The notes below the pieces were generated by a model, which saw only the letters and a program-made list of their open reading frames with translations, was not told the DNA's origin and ran no database searches. From a virus (lineage: Duplodnaviria; Caudoviricetes), in IMG/VR virus record IMGVR_UViG_3300047321_000298, positions 1 to 64,000 of that record: a stretch of DNA of 64,000 bases, one strand, 5' to 3'. A program made the position numbers and the translations under genes. Position 1 is the stretch's first letter; each line of letters begins with the position of its first letter. This document shows, piece after piece, positions 15,884 through 40,247 of this stretch.

Positions 15884-15964
15884 CAGCTAAAGAGTTGGGT
15901 ACGTGCACTCGATTGAGAAGGCGTACCCAACGACATAGGATGGTCAATTGAAGAAGGAGGTACC

Positions 15965-16249
15965 GTGAGAGTCGATGCTGCAAACCGACTTGCCGCAGAC
16001 GTACTGATGAACAACGAAAACGTGACTGTTGGATTTGATGAGAGCCGGGTAGGGCAGGTGCATGAGCTAGAGGGTTCCTCTGAACTGCCGATCTATCCGC
16101 TTCCTCAGGGACACAATCTGGACGACGGTGTGCTGAAGACAGGCATCGATTGTGATCCGGAGATGGCACCTATCGAACCCGTGAGCGATCCGGGAGTGCC
16201 TGAGCTAAACGCAGCGGCCCGCCTGGCAGTAGCGACACCGAATATCTAA
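15965..16249 (+). CDS. Hypothetical acidic protein
   Basis: Strong SD AAGGAGG before GTG 15965. Confidence 0.5.
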   Translation: MRVDAANRLAADVLMNNENVTVGFDESRVGQVHELEGSSELPIYPLPQGHNLDDGVLKTGIDCDPEMAPIEPVSDPGVPELNAAARLAVATPNI

Positions 16250-16259
16250 GTACATACCG

Positions 16260-16340
16260 TTCCCCAACACAATTTGATAGATGCAGGGACTTTGCGGCAA
16301 GTAACGACCTTTACTTGCGTATCAATTTGGGCACGGGGAA
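16260..16340 (+). promoter_or_regulatory. Structured 5' leader sequestering the RBS of the TraR-like gene
   Basis: TTCCCC/GGGGAA outer stem, CAATTTGATA/TATCAATTTG stem, inner hairpins incl. perfect GCAAGTAA/TTACTTGC. Confidence 0.45.
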
Positions 16341-16347
16341 TACAGTT

Positions 16348-16560
16348 ATGGACAAGGTGGACGAGGCTCAAGGGCTGATTGAAGACGTGAGGGAGGACCA
16401 TATTTCGCACATTCGCTCACGCGTAGGCAAGTCGCTAATCTTCAGCGGCTTCTGTTACTACTGCTATGAGGGTGTGCGCTCGCCTCATATATTTTGTGAT
16501 CTTGATTGTCGGGATGACTACGAACGCGAGCAGAGAATGAACAGAATAGAAGGCCGATAG
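16348..16560 (+). CDS. TraR/DksA-like C4 zinc-finger protein
   Basis: N-terminal DKVDEA = DxxDxA motif, helix, then CxxC...CxxxC; ATG 16348. Confidence 0.65.
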   Translation: MDKVDEAQGLIEDVREDHISHIRSRVGKSLIFSGFCYYCYEGVRSPHIFCDLDCRDDYEREQRMNRIEGR

Positions 16561-16575
16561 AGCAGAAGCCTCAAG

Positions 16576-16613
16576 AGCCCCGATCCCACAACGCAAGGGA
16601 TCGGGGCTTTTTT
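16576..16613 (+). terminator. Intrinsic terminator
   Basis: 12-bp stem AGCCCCGATCCC/GGGATCGGGGCT followed by T-run. Confidence 0.9.
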
Positions 16614-16655
16614 ATTGCAGTTTTATCCAAACTTGCAGAGCTAAGGAGTAAATAG

Positions 16656-17097: not shown

Positions 17098-17126
17098 TTG
17101 ACGAAATGTGCAGCAACTGCTAAATT
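17098..17126 (+). promoter_or_regulatory. Sigma70-type promoter with TGTGCA spacer motif
   Basis: TTGACG-AAA-TGTGCA-GCAACTGC-TAAATT (17-bp spacer) at the head of the accessory array. Confidence 0.6.
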
Positions 17127-32501: not shown

Positions 32502-32738
32502 ATGACCACTACACGGGTTTTCAAGAACGGCAACAGTCAGGCCGTTCGTATCCCTGCTGAGCTTGCATATGACCGTACGGATATCGATCTTGAAATCGAG
32601 CGCGTAGGGGACGAGATTCGCATTCGACCGATTGCCCGACCGCTGACCGGAGTGCTCAGGAAATTCGCGAAGTTCGGTGCAGATTTCATGAGCGAGGGGC
32701 GCGGTGATCAGGAGCAGACTGAGCGGGAGGGTCTCTGA
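32502..32738 (+). CDS. vapB: VapB antitoxin (AbrB/SpoVT fold, VagC type)
   Basis: TTRVFKNGNSQAVRIP..L..D..EIERVGDEIRIRP; 1-nt overlap with toxin. Confidence 0.93.
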   Translation: MTTTRVFKNGNSQAVRIPAELAYDRTDIDLEIERVGDEIRIRPIARPLTGVLRKFAKFGADFMSEGRGDQEQTEREGL

Positions 32739-33145
32739 TGCCCCGCTACATGCTCGATACCAACATGTGCATCTACCTGATGAAGAATCAGCCTGAGCAG
32801 GTAGCCAAGCGGTTTGCGCAATGTGTCGTGGGCGATGTGGTGATGTCTGCTATCACGTACGCAGAGCTTGAATACGGCGTGGCCGTTTGCGAAAACCCGG
32901 CACGCGAGCGGCGTAATCTTTCATCGCTGATCGAGGACATTCCGGTCGTTCCGTTTGATGCACCGGCCGCCGTTGCGTACGGGCCGATTCGGCAAGCCAC
33001 CCGCGACAAGAAAAAGGACCATCTGGACAAGCTCATAGCAGCGCACGCGGTTTCCCTTGACGTTCTGCTTGTCACGAACAACACGAAAGACTTCGTGCAG
33101 TATCCGGGCGTCCGGCTGGAAAACTGGCTTGATGAAAGCCACTAA
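32738..33145 (+). CDS. vapC: VapC PIN-domain toxin (endoribonuclease)
   Basis: YMLDTNMCIY, SAITYAELEYG, D.LIAAHA.SL..LVTNN.KDF..PG.RLENW; acidic PIN residues intact. Confidence 0.95.
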   Translation: MPRYMLDTNMCIYLMKNQPEQVAKRFAQCVVGDVVMSAITYAELEYGVAVCENPARERRNLSSLIEDIPVVPFDAPAAVAYGPIRQATRDKKKDHLDKLIAAHAVSLDVLLVTNNTKDFVQYPGVRLENWLDESH

Positions 33146-34652: not shown

Positions 34653-35162
34653 CTAGTTGGTCGCTTCCGCTTTCAACTGAGGGCCGAACGACAGGGGCAG
34701 CGGGTCGGCTGCTAGCTCGGTGTTCTTCTGCTCGACCCACAAGCGTAGCTGCGCGGTGTTAGGTGCATCGTAGGACAGCGTGAGATGCGCACGGTAGTCC
34801 GGGAACGAGTGCTGCAACCCTTCACCCAGCAACTCGGAATGCAGCCGCTGTAGGTCCGGAGAATCGATGCACGCAACGAGCACCGGCCGCTGCTTGTGAT
34901 CGAGCCACACCTGCAGGCTAGTCACTGATCCCTTGCACACGCGATCTGCTGGCGGCTTCACACCGAACGGAAGATCATGCTTGTGGTAAAGCACCGTCAC
35001 GTGAAAATCCGTGGAGTGGTTCGGCTTGAACGGTGCACCCGCCAGAAAGTTGCGCAGACTCAGGATCGACTGCTCATCCGGATCGGCCCACACGTAGAGT
35101 CCGGAGCCCGAATCAGCCTCCCGGATTTGATCGTAGAGAATCTGCGCTTCTATCTTGAACAT
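34653..35162 (-). CDS. acb1: Acb1-like (T4 gp57B family) 2H phosphoesterase, anti-CBASS candidate
   Basis: Two HxT motifs (FHVTVLY, AHLTLSYD) plus SGLYV, LQVW, VLV..DS..L..LH and G..H.F.DY..H.TLSY blocks collinear with recalled T4 gp57B. Confidence 0.8.
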   Translation of the reverse strand: MFKIEAQILYDQIREADSGSGLYVWADPDEQSILSLRNFLAGAPFKPNHSTDFHVTVLYHKHDLPFGVKPPADRVCKGSVTSLQVWLDHKQRPVLVACIDSPDLQRLHSELLGEGLQHSFPDYRAHLTLSYDAPNTAQLRLWVEQKNTELAADPLPLSFGPQLKAEATN

Positions 35163-35273: not shown

Positions 35274-35840
35274 TCAACTCCATTTGATCGACATGATTTC
35301 ATCGATGTCCTTTGCTGAAGCCAACTTGGCCTTTAGCTTTGAACGCGTCTGGAAAGCCTCCCACCCTTGTGCGGTTATGGCTGCGTTTAAGCCCTGAATA
35401 TCTTTCAGTGTGAAGGGAACCGGGGTGTTATCGGACGATATCCAGTAGAACCCGCTGGGAGTTTCGCCTAGGATGGAATACGATTGCGCTGCCCTTGCAA
35501 CAGATGCCGCACTTTCTGCATCAGCTTCAAACTTCTTGGTCACACCTCCCTCTGTAGTGAAGGAGATGTCGCTGACCACAGCGGAGTTGTAAGACGCAGT
35601 TATCGTCCTCTTCTGTGCTCCGCGTGCCTGCGACAACAGGAATTCAGGCGAGGGCGGAGTTAGCTTGTCGTCATTTACTGTCCAGCCGCCTTGCACCGCG
35701 AGACAAGCTTGCCATTCGTCATGGCTCAGGGCAATCGCTTCTACGCCTTCTGGCACTGGACTGTCAGTGCTATCGTAGAAGGCAACGATAACCCCATTCT
35801 TATCATATGCTGCGTACTTCTGACCCATGTCGGTCTCCAT
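35274..35840 (-). CDS. Tail fibre assembly chaperone (DUF4376/Tfa-like)
   Basis: Directly after a fibre gene; YAAYD.NG..AFYD, F.W...DN..VPFT..D..GL motif. Confidence 0.75.
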   Translation of the reverse strand: METDMGQKYAAYDKNGVIVAFYDSTDSPVPEGVEAIALSHDEWQACLAVQGGWTVNDDKLTPPSPEFLLSQARGAQKRTITASYNSAVVSDISFTTEGGVTKKFEADAESAASVARAAQSYSILGETPSGFYWISSDNTPVPFTLKDIQGLNAAITAQGWEAFQTRSKLKAKLASAKDIDEIMSIKWS

Positions 35841-37459
35841 TAATAGCCTATTGCGAGCCAGTTAGCACCTTTCTGATCGGCTCCGATAACAGCGGACGAA
35901 TTTGTGAAACTCACAACTCCGCTGTAGTTGTTGTTGGCAACGTTTCCGGGGCCAAACAAAGAGACGCTGTTTAATACCCTCAAGCAAGCGTTAGGGAACG
36001 TAATAGGGAAATTAACGGTGGGGAACGTTTGATTGCCGGGAGTGGTGCCCCATTGGAGTATTAGTCCATCTGGTAAAACGTCATACCCGTTCCCTGCGAA
36101 CAGCGTGCCGCTACCTAGTTTTCCGCGCATTGAAAACGGGAACCAGTCCGTCCAGTTAGCACCGTTGTTGTAGCCTTGTCGCCAGTACGGGGGATACCCA
36201 CCGACACCGTGACTATCGCCACCGCCTGTATTCCACGGATACGCGATCTGCGTGATGTCTGAGCCATGCGCGCCGGACACACCGTCACCGATGTTGTGAA
36301 CCCAGATGTTGCAGTTCCAGTTGATCGGCATGTTGGCCGGTAGGTTGCCCGAAGTCGCAATGTACAGCCCAGATGCAAGCGCGTTGCTGTTCAGATCGTC
36401 CGCACTGGTCAGTTGGCGTCCGCTGCTTGTTGACGGGCTCTGAAGCATGCCGACCGCTTGAATCACGCCCGGTTGCGGCATGTACAAGCCGGAACCACCG
36501 TACGCGAGACCAGGTGTGCCCACAGTGGCGAGAGGCGCGCTCGGAGGCGGGTCGATGATCTGCGAGTAGTAAATCTTCAGTCCCGATTGCGTGGACGAAT
36601 ACAGACGGCAGTGGCTACCAACAGCCGGTGAATTCAGCAGCGGGATATTGCTGTACGTGCCATCGTTCGTCACGTTCAGATTGAACCGGTAGTTAGCGCC
36701 TGACGTAACGATGCTCGACACTGACCGGAAAAATCCGTCCGGTGTTTCGAGGACCCACTGACGATTAGCAGATGCGAGCGCAGCAGGCGTGAACAGGGCC
36801 GGTGAAAACTCAACCCATGTCGTGGACGAGTTCAGGACCGGTGCCGCGTTGTTTACCTGATAGTAGGTCGTGCCCAGAGTCCACGATGAGTCACTCGAAT
36901 TTTGCAGGAGCGACGAATCACCTGAAGGGCTTAGCTCGCGCACAACGTACAGCGGAACATCGGGGTTAGCCGATACACCGGGCGGGTACACGTCGGACCA
37001 CTGATAGATATCGAGCACGGCCGGGGGCGCGTTGATTGTGTCGATCTGGAAGACTGCAACCGACTGCTCCAACTTCAACAGGCAGTTGAACGTGTAGCTC
37101 GATACGACGTTCGTGCCCAGGCTCGAATACTTCGTTTGCGGCTCGTCAAAGACGCCCTTTGCAAACATGACACCGCCATCGAGATACAGCGCGACTTCAC
37201 CGAACTGAAAAGGACCGGCATCGACCGGAATCTGACAGATGATGTTGAGCGTGTTGTTGCCGATGTATTCGTAGCTAGTTGGCACACCTGTGAAAAGCAG
37301 GTTGCCATTCAGACCGGCATCAGTGCGTTGCGGATCGTAGCCATAGGCCGATCCAACTTCAAAGCTGGTGATGTGAATGTAGGGACCTTCAGGCATCGCG
37401 GTTGACGCGACAGCAAGCCCCGCATTGGTGATCACCAGAAGTGGTGTGCCGTTACTCAT
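35840..37459 (-). CDS. Baseplate-anchored tail fibre protein
   Basis: N-terminal ITNAG..GSAYGY..GPFQFGEV anchor (paralogous to 2878..5292); C-terminal GY.VLPDGLILQWG..FPI.FPNAC tip. Confidence 0.88.
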   Translation of the reverse strand: MSNGTPLLVITNAGLAVASTAMPEGPYIHITSFEVGSAYGYDPQRTDAGLNGNLLFTGVPTSYEYIGNNTLNIICQIPVDAGPFQFGEVALYLDGGVMFAKGVFDEPQTKYSSLGTNVVSSYTFNCLLKLEQSVAVFQIDTINAPPAVLDIYQWSDVYPPGVSANPDVPLYVVRELSPSGDSSLLQNSSDSSWTLGTTYYQVNNAAPVLNSSTTWVEFSPALFTPAALASANRQWVLETPDGFFRSVSSIVTSGANYRFNLNVTNDGTYSNIPLLNSPAVGSHCRLYSSTQSGLKIYYSQIIDPPPSAPLATVGTPGLAYGGSGLYMPQPGVIQAVGMLQSPSTSSGRQLTSADDLNSNALASGLYIATSGNLPANMPINWNCNIWVHNIGDGVSGAHGSDITQIAYPWNTGGGDSHGVGGYPPYWRQGYNNGANWTDWFPFSMRGKLGSGTLFAGNGYDVLPDGLILQWGTTPGNQTFPTVNFPITFPNACLRVLNSVSLFGPGNVANNNYSGVVSFTNSSAVIGADQKGANWLAIGY

Positions 37460-37489
37460 TTACATACCTCTGTTAATGATTGAAGTGCG

Positions 37490-37846
37490 GGCTCTCGCAT
37501 TAGTGGTTTACCCGCGAAATGTTGATAAAATCCATTATGTCAAGTTCTGCTGCAACGCACCAAATGAATGAAATCAAATACATAGGTCAAGTAGCTGACC
37601 CTTTAATGAGTAAAAAGCGACAAAACAACACTTATTGCGTGCCCAGGCAACCAATATGCAATTGTTTTTCTGTGCAGCTATTGACAGTTTGTGCAACCCG
37701 TGCAGGTGCGAGTCATCGATGTGGAATCGAGCGGAAAAAGTTATCCACACGGCACGCAAGCCGCGTAGTTATCCACTTGCAGGGGAGTTGTTCACAATGC
37801 GTGAGGCTTATCCAACGCTTCGCGACTTATGCACAGCGTTGGAGCC
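37490..37846. other. oriC-like locus: AT-rich tract plus DnaA-box array
   Basis: TTATCCACA 37741, TTATCCACT 37769, TTGTTCACA 37788, TTATCCAAC 37808, TTATGCACA 37827; 37501-37680 is 39% GC by hand count (70/180); largest non-coding gap in the window. Confidence 0.6.
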
Positions 37847-38968
37847 TTATGCGTACTGCTGCAGGATGTCGGAGAGGCGTTCCATGTTCGTGTGCAGCCG
37901 GAAGTCTTGCCGCTCGCGTGTCGTGTGCACGTAGCCAGCCGGACGTGTCGAACCATCGAAGAACACCAGGTACAGATACTTGAAGCCCTTGTGCAGGGCC
38001 CCGCGAGCCTTGCGCGTAATCTCGTCTGTCACGCTTCCCCTATCGGCCGGGGGCTCGCTTGTGAGGTCGATCACCAGACCGCGCTTTTCGATCCACAGAT
38101 CAGGCGCGTAGTCGCGTCCTTCCGAGCGATACGTTGGGCCGGATGTATCGATAGATTGCGCAGCGATTCCCTCAGTCAGGAGCCACGGAATCGCCACCTT
38201 TTGGGTGCCAACGACCAACCACGAAGCGCCGCCCGAATCGAGCCGTTGTGGGGCGTTTTTGAAGGCCGCACGCAGCGCTTCGACGGGTTCCAGAGGCGCG
38301 ACCGGCAGCGCCTTTTTCTTGATACGCACGGGCACCGGCAGATCGTCTTCAACTTCGATCTTCAGGTTGTGTGCTGAGTCCCTGAGCTTTTCCCGCACCT
38401 CCCGCCGTTGGCTCGAACTGGTGCGTTTGCCGTTGCTGCGTTCTAGCTCGTTGCGCCGGTTTGATTCCACGCGTTTGGCTATCGCTTCCGGACGTGATCG
38501 CGGATCGACCGATGTACCGTTGGAGCGTTCAAGCTCGCGATCCATGATCATCTCTTTGTACGTCTTCGAGCGACGCAGCGCGCGGCTTCGGTTTCTGAGT
38601 TCCGGCCGCTGCGCTACGTTCGTGTACTTGCCGCCTGATCGTTCTAGCTCGTTGCGTCTGCGCGTCTCGATCTTCGCCGGGTCTTTCCACGAGCACGCAG
38701 CAGAGCAGTAGCTGATGTACTTCAGTGCGCGTTTATCGAACCGGACCGTTTCGTTGCAGCCCGGAGTCTTGCACGTTGATCGCGCGTTAGGAAACAGGTG
38801 CGTGTAGAACTCAAGCTGATTGAACCGTGAGCCCAATGCGTCCTGCAATTCACTAAACAGTTCCGCGTCTATACGGTTGCGCAGCCATGCACTGAATCCA
38901 CCTGGTCCGCTAGGTTTGGATAGCTGCAGCAGCCCCCTCACATCCTTTATAACAAGTTTCTGGTCCAT
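37847..38968 (-). CDS. Homing-endonuclease-like protein (zinc motif, repeats, degenerate PD-(D/E)xK domain)
   Basis: C..PGC..V.F....Y..YCS..C, three RxxELERSxG repeats, YAPDLWI...LVIDLTS. Confidence 0.55.
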   Translation of the reverse strand: MDQKLVIKDVRGLLQLSKPSGPGGFSAWLRNRIDAELFSELQDALGSRFNQLEFYTHLFPNARSTCKTPGCNETVRFDKRALKYISYCSAACSWKDPAKIETRRRNELERSGGKYTNVAQRPELRNRSRALRRSKTYKEMIMDRELERSNGTSVDPRSRPEAIAKRVESNRRNELERSNGKRTSSSQRREVREKLRDSAHNLKIEVEDDLPVPVRIKKKALPVAPLEPVEALRAAFKNAPQRLDSGGASWLVVGTQKVAIPWLLTEGIAAQSIDTSGPTYRSEGRDYAPDLWIEKRGLVIDLTSEPPADRGSVTDEITRKARGALHKGFKYLYLVFFDGSTRPAGYVHTTRERQDFRLHTNMERLSDILQQYA

Positions 38969-39043
38969 CTACATATCCCGCAGTTTGCTTGCATATAGCT
39001 CAAATTGGGGTATGTGCGTGTAGCGCTTCAGATGTGTTGGGGC

Positions 39044-39087
39044 TACAGCGTGCAGTCTACAGTTGGGTCTGTACAGCGTGCAGTCTA
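39044..39087. repeat. 16-bp direct repeat TACAGCGTGCAGTCTA x2
   Basis: Exact copies at 39044-39059 and 39072-39087 (28-bp period), intergenic. Confidence 0.9.
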
Positions 39088-39128
39088 TATAGCGCTCTAC
39101 TGCTGCTTTGTGCTGCGTTTTTTTGTGT

Positions 39129-40247
39129 TCAGAACAGACGGCTAGACTGTATGTTCAGTGCACGTTGCTGCTGATCCGATTGCAGACCGAACACATAGTT
39201 GCGGAACCCGTAGTTGATATCGAACATCACAGGGAACGACGGTTGACTCACCTTAGAGCCGGTTACCGTCAGTTGCTCTGTATCAGCCCATGACAGAGAT
39301 ATGATCCCTGATTGGGTAGTTGAGTTGTTGGATGAGGGTTGCAGTGTCCCCTGTGTTTGGTTGTTACCAGCGAATCCTGAGAGCATCTTGATGAAGTACT
39401 GTCTCTGTGTAAGCTGTGCAGTAGTCGGTGAGTTCGCTGGTGTCATAAGCTTGCCGTTGATGAGGAACTGCGATCCATACTGAACGAACGACGTGCCCAT
39501 TGATCCGCTTTGTGTTCCCATGAATCCCCAGTAGGCTGACGTATCTGTCATGTTTACTGTTGAACCTAGCAGCTTGACGTAGCCATGGCTCGATGAATCC
39601 ATGTTCCTCACTACATCCGCATAGATCGAATACAGAGCGATTGACGGAGTGGCTGGTGCTTGGGGCAGGTTTAAAGCCACCCCTTCAAACGTGATAGACC
39701 CGCCGTACCTGTTGATTCCGTATAGAACCCATTGCGCGTTTGTTTGGCCTGTTGAGAACGTGATAGTCGGTCTCTGGAGGTCTTGCATATACTGCGATTT
39801 ACACTGTGTTCCGGAGACCAATGTGTCGAAATCTCCGTAGTTCGTATCCCCATAGAACGTGAACACAAGGTTAGCTCCGGTGTAGATCGCAACGTCTGAC
39901 TGAGGGAACGAGAAGGTCTGGGAGGCGAGCAGCGCGATATACACAGAGCCCGTTATCTGCTGATTCGGAAACAGCGATTGGGCTGCTTGTACGGCTTTGG
40001 CTATAGTCTGGAACGGCTGTGCTTTGGTACCCGGGTTTGTATCTGAACCTGAGTTGGACACGTAGAAAGCGGTGAACGAACCGAAGTAGGAGTGGCTCCC
40101 AACGTACACGCCATCTGCATTGGACTGAACGAGGTTACCGGGTTGCTGTGAAATCGGCACCTGAGTCGGGGGGATGGTCGCTGACGGGTCCATCGGCCGC
40201 GTTACCTGAAGGGCTGAATCGTAAAACGAAGGAAGCTGGTATGTCAT
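39129..40247 (-). CDS. Baseplate-associated protein with beta-helix (tailspike-like) signature
   Basis: FYVSNSGSDTNPGTKAQPFQTIAKAV is the typical cap motif of pectate-lyase-like beta-helices; lies in the baseplate operon. Confidence 0.55.
   Translation of the reverse strand: MTYQLPSFYDSALQVTRPMDPSATIPPTQVPISQQPGNLVQSNADGVYVGSHSYFGSFTAFYVSNSGSDTNPGTKAQPFQTIAKAVQAAQSLFPNQQITGSVYIALLASQTFSFPQSDVAIYTGANLVFTFYGDTNYGDFDTLVSGTQCKSQYMQDLQRPTITFSTGQTNAQWVLYGINRYGGSITFEGVALNLPQAPATPSIALYSIYADVVRNMDSSSHGYVKLLGSTVNMTDTSAYWGFMGTQSGSMGTSFVQYGSQFLINGKLMTPANSPTTAQLTQRQYFIKMLSGFAGNNQTQGTLQPSSNNSTTQSGIISLSWADTEQLTVTGSKVSQPSFPVMFDINYGFRNYVFGLQSDQQQRALNIQSSRLF

Follow-up and report, generated by a model that had tools for sequence, protein, structure and literature searches.

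The window, that is, the whole 64-kb stretch of DNA that was analysed, is the start of a 245,517-bp IMG/VR record of a soil phage (54.6 % GC). As the terminal repeat of this record measures only 127 bp, the physical ends of the genome cannot be placed from it. The baseplate wedge protein has 51-61 % identity with its counterparts in phiRSL1 (Ralstonia), BcepSaruman, BcepSauron, and BCSR5 (Burkholderia), and Motura (Achromobacter), which identifies the phage as a jumbo myovirus of the RSL1 type; the T4-like frame in which the original prediction had placed it is wrong, a phiRSL1/BcepSaruman-type phage being indicated by the wedge protein. The host is probably a Paraburkholderia or Caballeronia.

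A gap at 37460-37846 is flanked by two minus-strand genes in an operon of baseplate and tail-fibre genes, with baseplate genes upstream and an Acb1-like gene downstream. The gene immediately upstream of the gap encodes a 373-aa protein with few relatives, and the contigs carrying these were used as a graded comparison series that includes L002 (99 % amino acid identity), L008 (88 %; a 41-kb JGI contig), and L009 (71 %). The features at the locus are the following.

35840..37459, minus strand: tail-collar fibre gene (Pfam Phage_tail_fib and Gp53-like_C; PHROG tail-fibre families), downstream of the gap
37500..37700, no strand: conserved AT-rich non-coding element, ~39 % GC, apparently a module separate from the boxes
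37521..37543, minus strand: invariant 23-mer TTGACATAATGGnnnTTATCAAC, core of the AT-rich element
37681..37695, plus strand: copy of the early-promoter core TTGACA-N3-TGTGCA, no usable -10, conserved in L008
37741..37749, plus strand: DnaA box 1, TTATCCACA, perfect, nearest to the AT-rich tract, identical in L008 and L002
37745..37768, minus strand: terminator-like hairpin with a T5 tract, between boxes 2 and 1
37769..37777, plus strand: DnaA box 2, TTATCCACT, 1 mismatch; L008 has TTATTCACA and L002 TTATCCACG at the same place
37788..37796, plus strand: DnaA box 3, TTGTTCACA, 2 mismatches, identical in L008
37808..37816, plus strand: DnaA box 4, TTATCCAAC, 2 mismatches; L008 has TTGTGCACA at the same place
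37827..37835, plus strand: DnaA box 5, TTATGCACA, 1 mismatch, identical in L008
37847..38968, minus strand: free-standing, PD-(D/E)xK-like gene of the DUF7487 family, 373 aa, upstream neighbour of the gap
38969..39128, no strand: second gap of the inserted block, holding two 16-bp direct repeats

The 373-aa protein, a divergent member of DUF7487, is Cys-rich at its N-terminus, contains three NELERS-G repeats, and is PD-(D/E)xK-like at its C-terminus. In the clade of the window the lysine of its E-x-K triad is replaced by threonine; relatives of 38 % identity have kept E-V-K. Judged by these residues, the protein is possibly an inactivated free-standing endonuclease. The direct repeats in the 160-bp gap on its other side, TAGACTGCACGCTGTA, are located on the minus strand at 39087..39072 and 39059..39044, 28 bp apart. 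The Acb1-like gene (34653-35162, minus strand; Pfam Acb1, 2.7e-17) specifies a putative anti-CBASS phosphodiesterase, ends the tail-fibre gene block, and occupies the same place in L008 and in L021-24. Elsewhere in the window, the stretch 15884-16655 contains nothing but short, doubtful ORFs, so that the gap with the boxes may not be, as predicted, the largest non-coding one.

A DNA similarity search with the gap gave no match among cultured phages and plasmids, and a search of Rfam gave one sub-threshold chance match only. A coding role of the gap was considered and rejected. Neither the 154-aa ORF at 37519-37983 nor the small ORFs are kept in L008 and L009; in the alignments inspected, the indels are not multiples of 3 and the substitutions are not at third positions, for which reason these ORFs were dismissed. 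The terminator was likewise discarded as a conserved feature, its fold z-score being -2.9 in the window and +0.6 in L008, where no terminator was called.

The five boxes and their conservation

Five same-strand 9-mers resembling DnaA boxes had been predicted in the gap, and their coordinates, their location on the plus strand, and their start-to-start distances of 28, 19, 20, and 19 bp all proved to be correct, as did the perfect box at 37741 and the fit to TTWTNCACA of the one at 37827. These two boxes are the only ones that fit the strict motif; the other three have one or two mismatches to TTATCCACA. In the whole 245,517-bp genome a perfect TTATCCACA is found at 37741 only. Sites with at most one mismatch to it number 52 genome-wide, and three of these lie on one strand within 95 bp at the array. 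Same-strand clusters were scored in a 120-bp sliding window with 3, 2, or 1 points for 0, 1, or 2 mismatches. The array obtained a score of 9, the next-best site in the genome one of 4, and the maximum in 100 second-order Markov genomes was 5, so that the clustering, when set against these simulated controls, is beyond chance.

Both the array and the AT-rich element have been kept in L002, the gap of which differs by five point changes, including one in box 2 (position 9). The contig L008 carries five boxes in the same order (TTATCCACA, TTATTCACA, TTGTTCACA, TTGTGCACA, and TTATGCACA) with spacings of 29, 19, 20, and 20 bp, each preserved to within 1 bp of that in the window. The window and L008 are identical at 39/45 box positions and at 24/54 positions in the four spacers (Fisher p=1.8e-5); for comparison, the two flanking genes are only 50-57 % identical at their four-fold degenerate sites. 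As the spacers are about as identical as the four-fold sites, they have diverged as far as neutral positions, whereas the 9-mers have kept both sequence and spacing. Purifying selection on the sequence and the spacing of the boxes is shown by this alignment, which is one comparison, L008 being the sole independent relative with the array.

The window and L008 together provide ten boxes with the consensus TTRTNCACA, which vary mainly at position 5. In the published DnaA-box consensus, TT(A/T)TNCACA, position 5 is a free N (as quoted in 10.1101/866236). A search for a phage-encoded DnaA domain yielded none, only P-loop/HTH matches below threshold, and in a phage without its own DnaA the host protein is the likely binder. 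In a Burkholderiaceae genome, dnaA is preceded by a perfect box that likewise has the AGTTATCCACA flank. The assignment of the five 9-mers as DnaA-type binding sites is well supported by these sequence comparisons.

Alternatively, the repeats could be the sites of another protein, such as a phage repressor, the DUF7487 protein, or a plasmid-type Rep, in which case their likeness to DnaA boxes would be coincidental and their 19-22-bp phasing iteron-like. Five repeats at 19-20 bp do have the geometry of iterons, a DNA-binding-like gene is adjacent to the array, and the early promoters of the phage share a TGTGCA core, which resembles the TGTG.A of the boxes in minus-strand reading. However, the AA at positions 8-9 in this minus-strand reading is invariant in the ten boxes and not in the promoter cores, and a 9/9 match in the best-conserved box together with variation at the very position that is degenerate for DnaA is unlikely to arise by chance. 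Nor do the DUF7487 genes of L009-L012 and L021-L024 have boxes beside them, or the plasmids of the type that donated rep (see below) such repeats, and the chance that another protein is the ligand would seem slim.

The array was absent from phiRSL1, BcepSaruman, BCSR5, and Motura, and in none of these four genomes do two boxes occur near each other. The fibre gene of phiRSL1, BCSR5, and Motura lies only 10-22 bp from the homologue of 39129-40247, and the corresponding junction in BcepSaruman is likewise tight. The junctions next to nine more fibre-gene relatives in IMG/VR measure 14-24 bp and are free of boxes. In L010-12 and L021-24 the DUF7487 gene occupies the same position, immediately adjoining the fibre gene and without boxes, and in L009 it is followed by a gap of 236 bp with the AT-rich element and, again, without boxes. 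As the DUF7487 gene occurs without boxes in relatives, and as the array is missing from the other members of the family examined, the boxes are tied to neither. Conservation in related phages thus holds for L002 and L008 and fails for the four cultured and nine uncultured relatives. From this distribution, the array looks like a recent gain by one phiRSL1-like sub-lineage, between the DUF7487 gene and the fibre gene. At 5480-5680 of L008, the AT-rich element is set apart from the fibre gene by ~170 extra bases, which include an 18-codon ORF overlapping the start of that gene.

The AT-rich element and transcription

The GC content of 37501-37680 is 0.39, exactly the value claimed for it, and the 100 bp from 37517 rank, in nearest-neighbour energy, with the ~5 least stable stretches of that length in the genome. 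The tract was also said to adjoin the boxes, which it does not: about 60 bp of 52 % GC separate it from box 1. The element is present in a single copy in the phage genome, and all but ~22 of 190 aligned columns are invariant between the window and L008 (~88 %). In L009 it is box-less and inverted relative to the flanking genes. Inspection revealed no conserved ORF in the element, and a consensus RNA fold of three sequences had a weak energy and a positive covariation term, leaving an RNA gene unsupported. An invertible promoter was considered for the flipped element of L009 and rejected, as the inverted repeats are only weak (13-nt, 77 %).

The sequence of the 23-mer at the core of the element suggests an extended -10 promoter (TG-n-CATAAT) pointing at the fibre gene; TTGGTG is found at 37563..37558, 18 nt upstream of the putative -10. 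A variant box, TTATCAACA, follows the promoter-like 23-mer at 37528..37520, at the end of the AT tract that points away from the array. The same 23-mer is present in three distinct unrelated IMG/VR sequences on five contigs (L015, L016/L020, and L018/L019), two of these three having small HTH genes near it. In addition, 60 bases of the element match a Burkholderiaceae chromosome (G175:C1:3735654-3735713) at the start of a doc-like ORF, the Fic-type motif of which is unusually close to the ORF start. The 23-mer looks like a mobile promoter/operator or the end of an element. The AT tract is separate from the array, as it is inverted and box-less in L009 and recurs in phages that are unrelated and in the chromosome of a Burkholderiaceae member; judged by these occurrences, it appears to be a promoter-like module of its own and not a paired unwinding element.

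An early-promoter family, TTGAC(A/G)-N3-TGTGCA-N7-8-TAnAAT, is represented in the window at 17098, 22980, 25813, 33529, and 37681 and in the genome at 109495, 127600, and 220235. The core has eight exact copies in the genome, all of which, except that at 37681, are followed by TAnAAT.

The array could act on transcription as a DnaA-dependent barrier or regulator, stopping read-through from the DUF7487 gene or repressing or activating the fibre promoter, by which late genes would be tied to DnaA status. The array starts, with box 5, 12 nt past the stop codon of the upstream minus-strand gene and extends as far as the promoter-like element; all its boxes are on one strand, and they are conserved where the intrinsic-terminator hairpin is not. 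The variant box, moreover, coincides in part with the start site predicted for the fibre promoter. Schaefer and Messer reportedly found in 1989 that DnaA-box complexes block RNA polymerase in an orientation-dependent manner, which was counted in favour of a barrier. Nevertheless, relatives with the same gene pair have no gap at all, the boxes are 200-300 bp upstream of the putative promoter, and the promoter-like element faces the opposite way in L009; such a role is unlikely.

Plasmid-type genes and the origin question

At 217662-221461, 64 kb from the array, the phage carries a plasmid-type parA-parB-rep cassette with the following genes.

In 217662-221461: parA, type Ia, 427 aa (NCBIfam plasmid-partition RepA, 1.5e-61)
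In 217662-221461: parB, 343 aa, overlapping parA
220229-221461: rep, 410 aa, 55 % identical to 'Replication protein O' encoded after parAB on Caballeronia/Burkholderia megaplasmids

The 255-bp spacer between parB and rep contains GGCTGGAAA-type repeats. ParA is 68-91 % identical to proteins of Burkholderiaceae plasmids, the top match (91 %) being a Paraburkholderia protein, and no ParA above the family cut-off was found in phiRSL1, BcepSaruman, BCSR5, or Motura. A search with the wedge protein detected no phage structural genes in the bacterial genomes with the closest parA. The window itself contains, at 32502-33145 on the plus strand, a vapB-like gene (78 aa, AbrB/MazE-type N-terminus) and a vapC-like gene (135 aa) with a 1-nt overlap. 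This vapC was considered as a possible kin of the vapC beside rep on a Burkholderia plasmid, to which it turned out to be unrelated. As it carries parA-parB-rep and vapBC, the lineage may have a plasmid-like phase, and the phage is a candidate jumbo phage-plasmid. The boxes were also considered as part of a plasmid-type replicon, an idea that was abandoned: plasmids of the donor type contain 1-3 consensus boxes in 280 kb, none of them near rep, and since they lack box clusters, the array is not part of the parA-parB-rep replicon.

The original prediction saw in the array an oriC-like origin. The DnaA-type sites required for this are supported, but trios, an adjoining AT element, a skew switch, and family-wide presence are all missing. 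The basal unwinding system combines DnaA boxes and AT-rich DNA with at least three DnaA-trios (NAN) at 0-16 bp from a box (PMC8287927); a run of three NAN common to the window and L008 was not present within 16 bp of any box, on either side. Cumulative GC skew, which carries little weight in a phage, is lowest at 2 kb and highest at 214 kb, and the extremum looked for at 37.7 kb did not appear. The AT-rich unwinding element of an oriC-type origin, directly beside the boxes and co-inherited with them, was not found here. Neither was the cognate initiator gene that lies beside the repeats in an iteron origin, the neighbour of the array being the nuclease-like DUF7487 gene. The absence of trios, the distant AT tract, the flat skew, and a DnaB-type helicase encoded by the phage itself remove the hallmarks of oriC, albeit with room for an auxiliary origin. 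On these comparisons the array is not the origin of the phage family, and the case for an oriC is weak.

An origin dependent on host DnaA might be auxiliary in the lytic cycle or serve a plasmid-like carrier state, DnaA opening the AT-rich DNA with the help of transcription from the 23-mer. The array is the sole box cluster of the genome and lies beside one of its ~5 most easily melted 100-bp stretches, and the AT tract has TTATCAACA on its distal side. Array and AT-rich element are jointly retained in the window, L002, and L008, as those of an origin would be, and a plasmid phase is made plausible by the parA-parB-rep cassette, gained by this lineage alone, and by vapBC. Even so, an origin of this kind is improbable. 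No (NAN)3 run near any box is conserved between the window and L008, 60 bp of 52 % GC intervene between the AT tract and box 1, and the AT element is box-less in L009, in other phages, and in a bacterial chromosome. The array is missing from all other relatives examined and does not coincide with a skew extremum. The phage has its own DnaB-type helicase, the plasmid Rep is encoded 64 kb away, and the donor plasmids are without box clusters. Finally, the AT tract is on the wrong side relative to the orientation of the boxes, judged by the layout of the E. coli oriC.

With the plasmid-type genes in mind, the array might also be a site of cell-cycle coupling in a jumbo phage-plasmid, where host DnaA bound at 37.7 kb would either fire an oriC-like origin or time and limit the replication of the 245-kb replicon. 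The low-copy carrier state that this presupposes would be kept by the parA-parB-rep cassette and the toxin-antitoxin genes. Such coupling is decidedly unlikely; if true, it would be comparable to the control exerted by sites of the datA or crtS type.

Relation to known systems and meaning

The iteron origins of phage-plasmids and plasmids, such as P1 oriR and F oriS, resemble the array in having five repeats at ~19-20 bp beside AT-rich DNA, and the phage has parAB, Rep, and toxin-antitoxin genes. They differ from it in that the repeat unit in the phage is the DnaA box itself, with 9 of ~20 bp conserved, and in that no cognate rep is found beside the phage array, rep being 64 kb off and its plasmid relatives being without the repeats.

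In datA of E. coli and in the DnaA-box clusters of B. subtilis, about five boxes outside the origin hold DnaA, with an effect that scales with copy number. The datA locus has an IHF site and a defined arrangement of boxes that promote the hydrolysis of DnaA-ATP. The array likewise comprises about five boxes outside an origin; it differs in consisting of one strong and four weaker sites.

Bacterial oriC (PMC8287927) shares with the array the same-strand DnaA boxes and the easily melted DNA in the same gap. In the phage these come without trios, without an adjoining AT tract, and without a skew switch, and they are not conserved in the family.

In 25 T5-like phages, Davison described conserved DnaA boxes, including TTATCAACA, in the injection-stop region and argued that they are non-replicative (10.1101/866236). 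These boxes are away from the origins, and their function is hypothesised only (10.1101/866236). The T5 boxes and the present array have in common the combination of consensus and variant boxes (TTATCCACA, TTATGCACA, TTATTCACA, and TTATCAACA), a non-coding location, a lytic-type phage, and a position away from replication genes. In contrast, the eight boxes of T5 form pairs with a distance of 3 bp and lie inside inverted repeats of a terminal repeat, whereas the five boxes here are placed head-to-tail at ~20 bp in a tail operon and are confined to a narrow sub-lineage. Long inverted repeats flanking the array were not found, and with spacings of 19-28 bp it does not have the form of a T5-type iss.

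As in T5, the array might tether entering or replicating phage DNA to membrane-bound DnaA, to pause injection or to localise the DNA. The T5-like phages do conserve boxes in the injection-stop region (10.1101/866236), and other viral contigs have arrays beside terminase genes or at contig ends. The T5 model is itself only a hypothesis, however, and the boxes here are not 3-bp pairs in inverted repeats; they are in a tail operon 37.7 kb from the start of a record with a 127-bp terminal repeat that is too short to locate the physical ends. The likelihood of a tether is very low.

Same-strand arrays were detected by a spacing-restricted pattern scan in 35 metagenomic and 10 viral contigs. Perfect-box arrays of 12-45 same-strand boxes are present in L051, L071/L077, L075, L069, L046/L074, and L076/L078; that of L075 has 22 boxes with 19/20-bp phasing, and those of L071 and L051 have 25-45. 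The arrays of L074 and L076 are just upstream of terminase genes, and several arrays are at contig ends. The array thus belongs to an already known, functionally unexplained kind, that of phage DnaA-box arrays, with T5 as the published precedent.

To our knowledge, nobody has shown a function for DnaA-box clusters in lytic-type phages. The reading to which we tentatively give the most weight, at a likelihood just short of even, is that the array is a lineage-specific, recently acquired site for docking or titrating host DnaA. Each copy of the phage genome would then be occupied by several neighbouring host DnaA molecules, spaced by about two helical turns. The most likely effect would be the sequestration of DnaA as phage DNA multiplies, as in a datA-like sink, which the original prediction had named as its second option; in addition or instead, a local DnaA-DNA plug might form between the upstream gene and the fibre promoter. 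Docking that initiates phage replication appears less likely than sequestration or a plug.

Docking is favoured by an array that is the only one in the genome and far beyond the simulated genomes, with conserved boxes and neutral spacers, and by its non-origin features, namely its absence from relatives, the lack of trios, the independence of the AT module, and the lack of a skew signal. Precedent is provided by the conserved boxes of T5-like phages away from their origins and by the large same-strand arrays in viral contigs. On the other hand, the selection footprint comes from one independent relative, L008, five mostly weak sites make a small sink next to the 12-45 perfect boxes of other phage arrays, and an origin, too, would be expected to be conserved jointly with the AT-rich element, as the array is in the window, L002, and L008.

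In conclusion, the locus is fixed and has close relatives with array and AT-rich element, with the AT-rich element alone, or with neither, which provides a clean evolutionary contrast for experiments. If docking of DnaA has no measurable effect, the recurrent arrays in phages need another explanation. If it alters host initiation or phage persistence, the array would represent a new route by which a phage reads or manipulates the cell cycle of its host.
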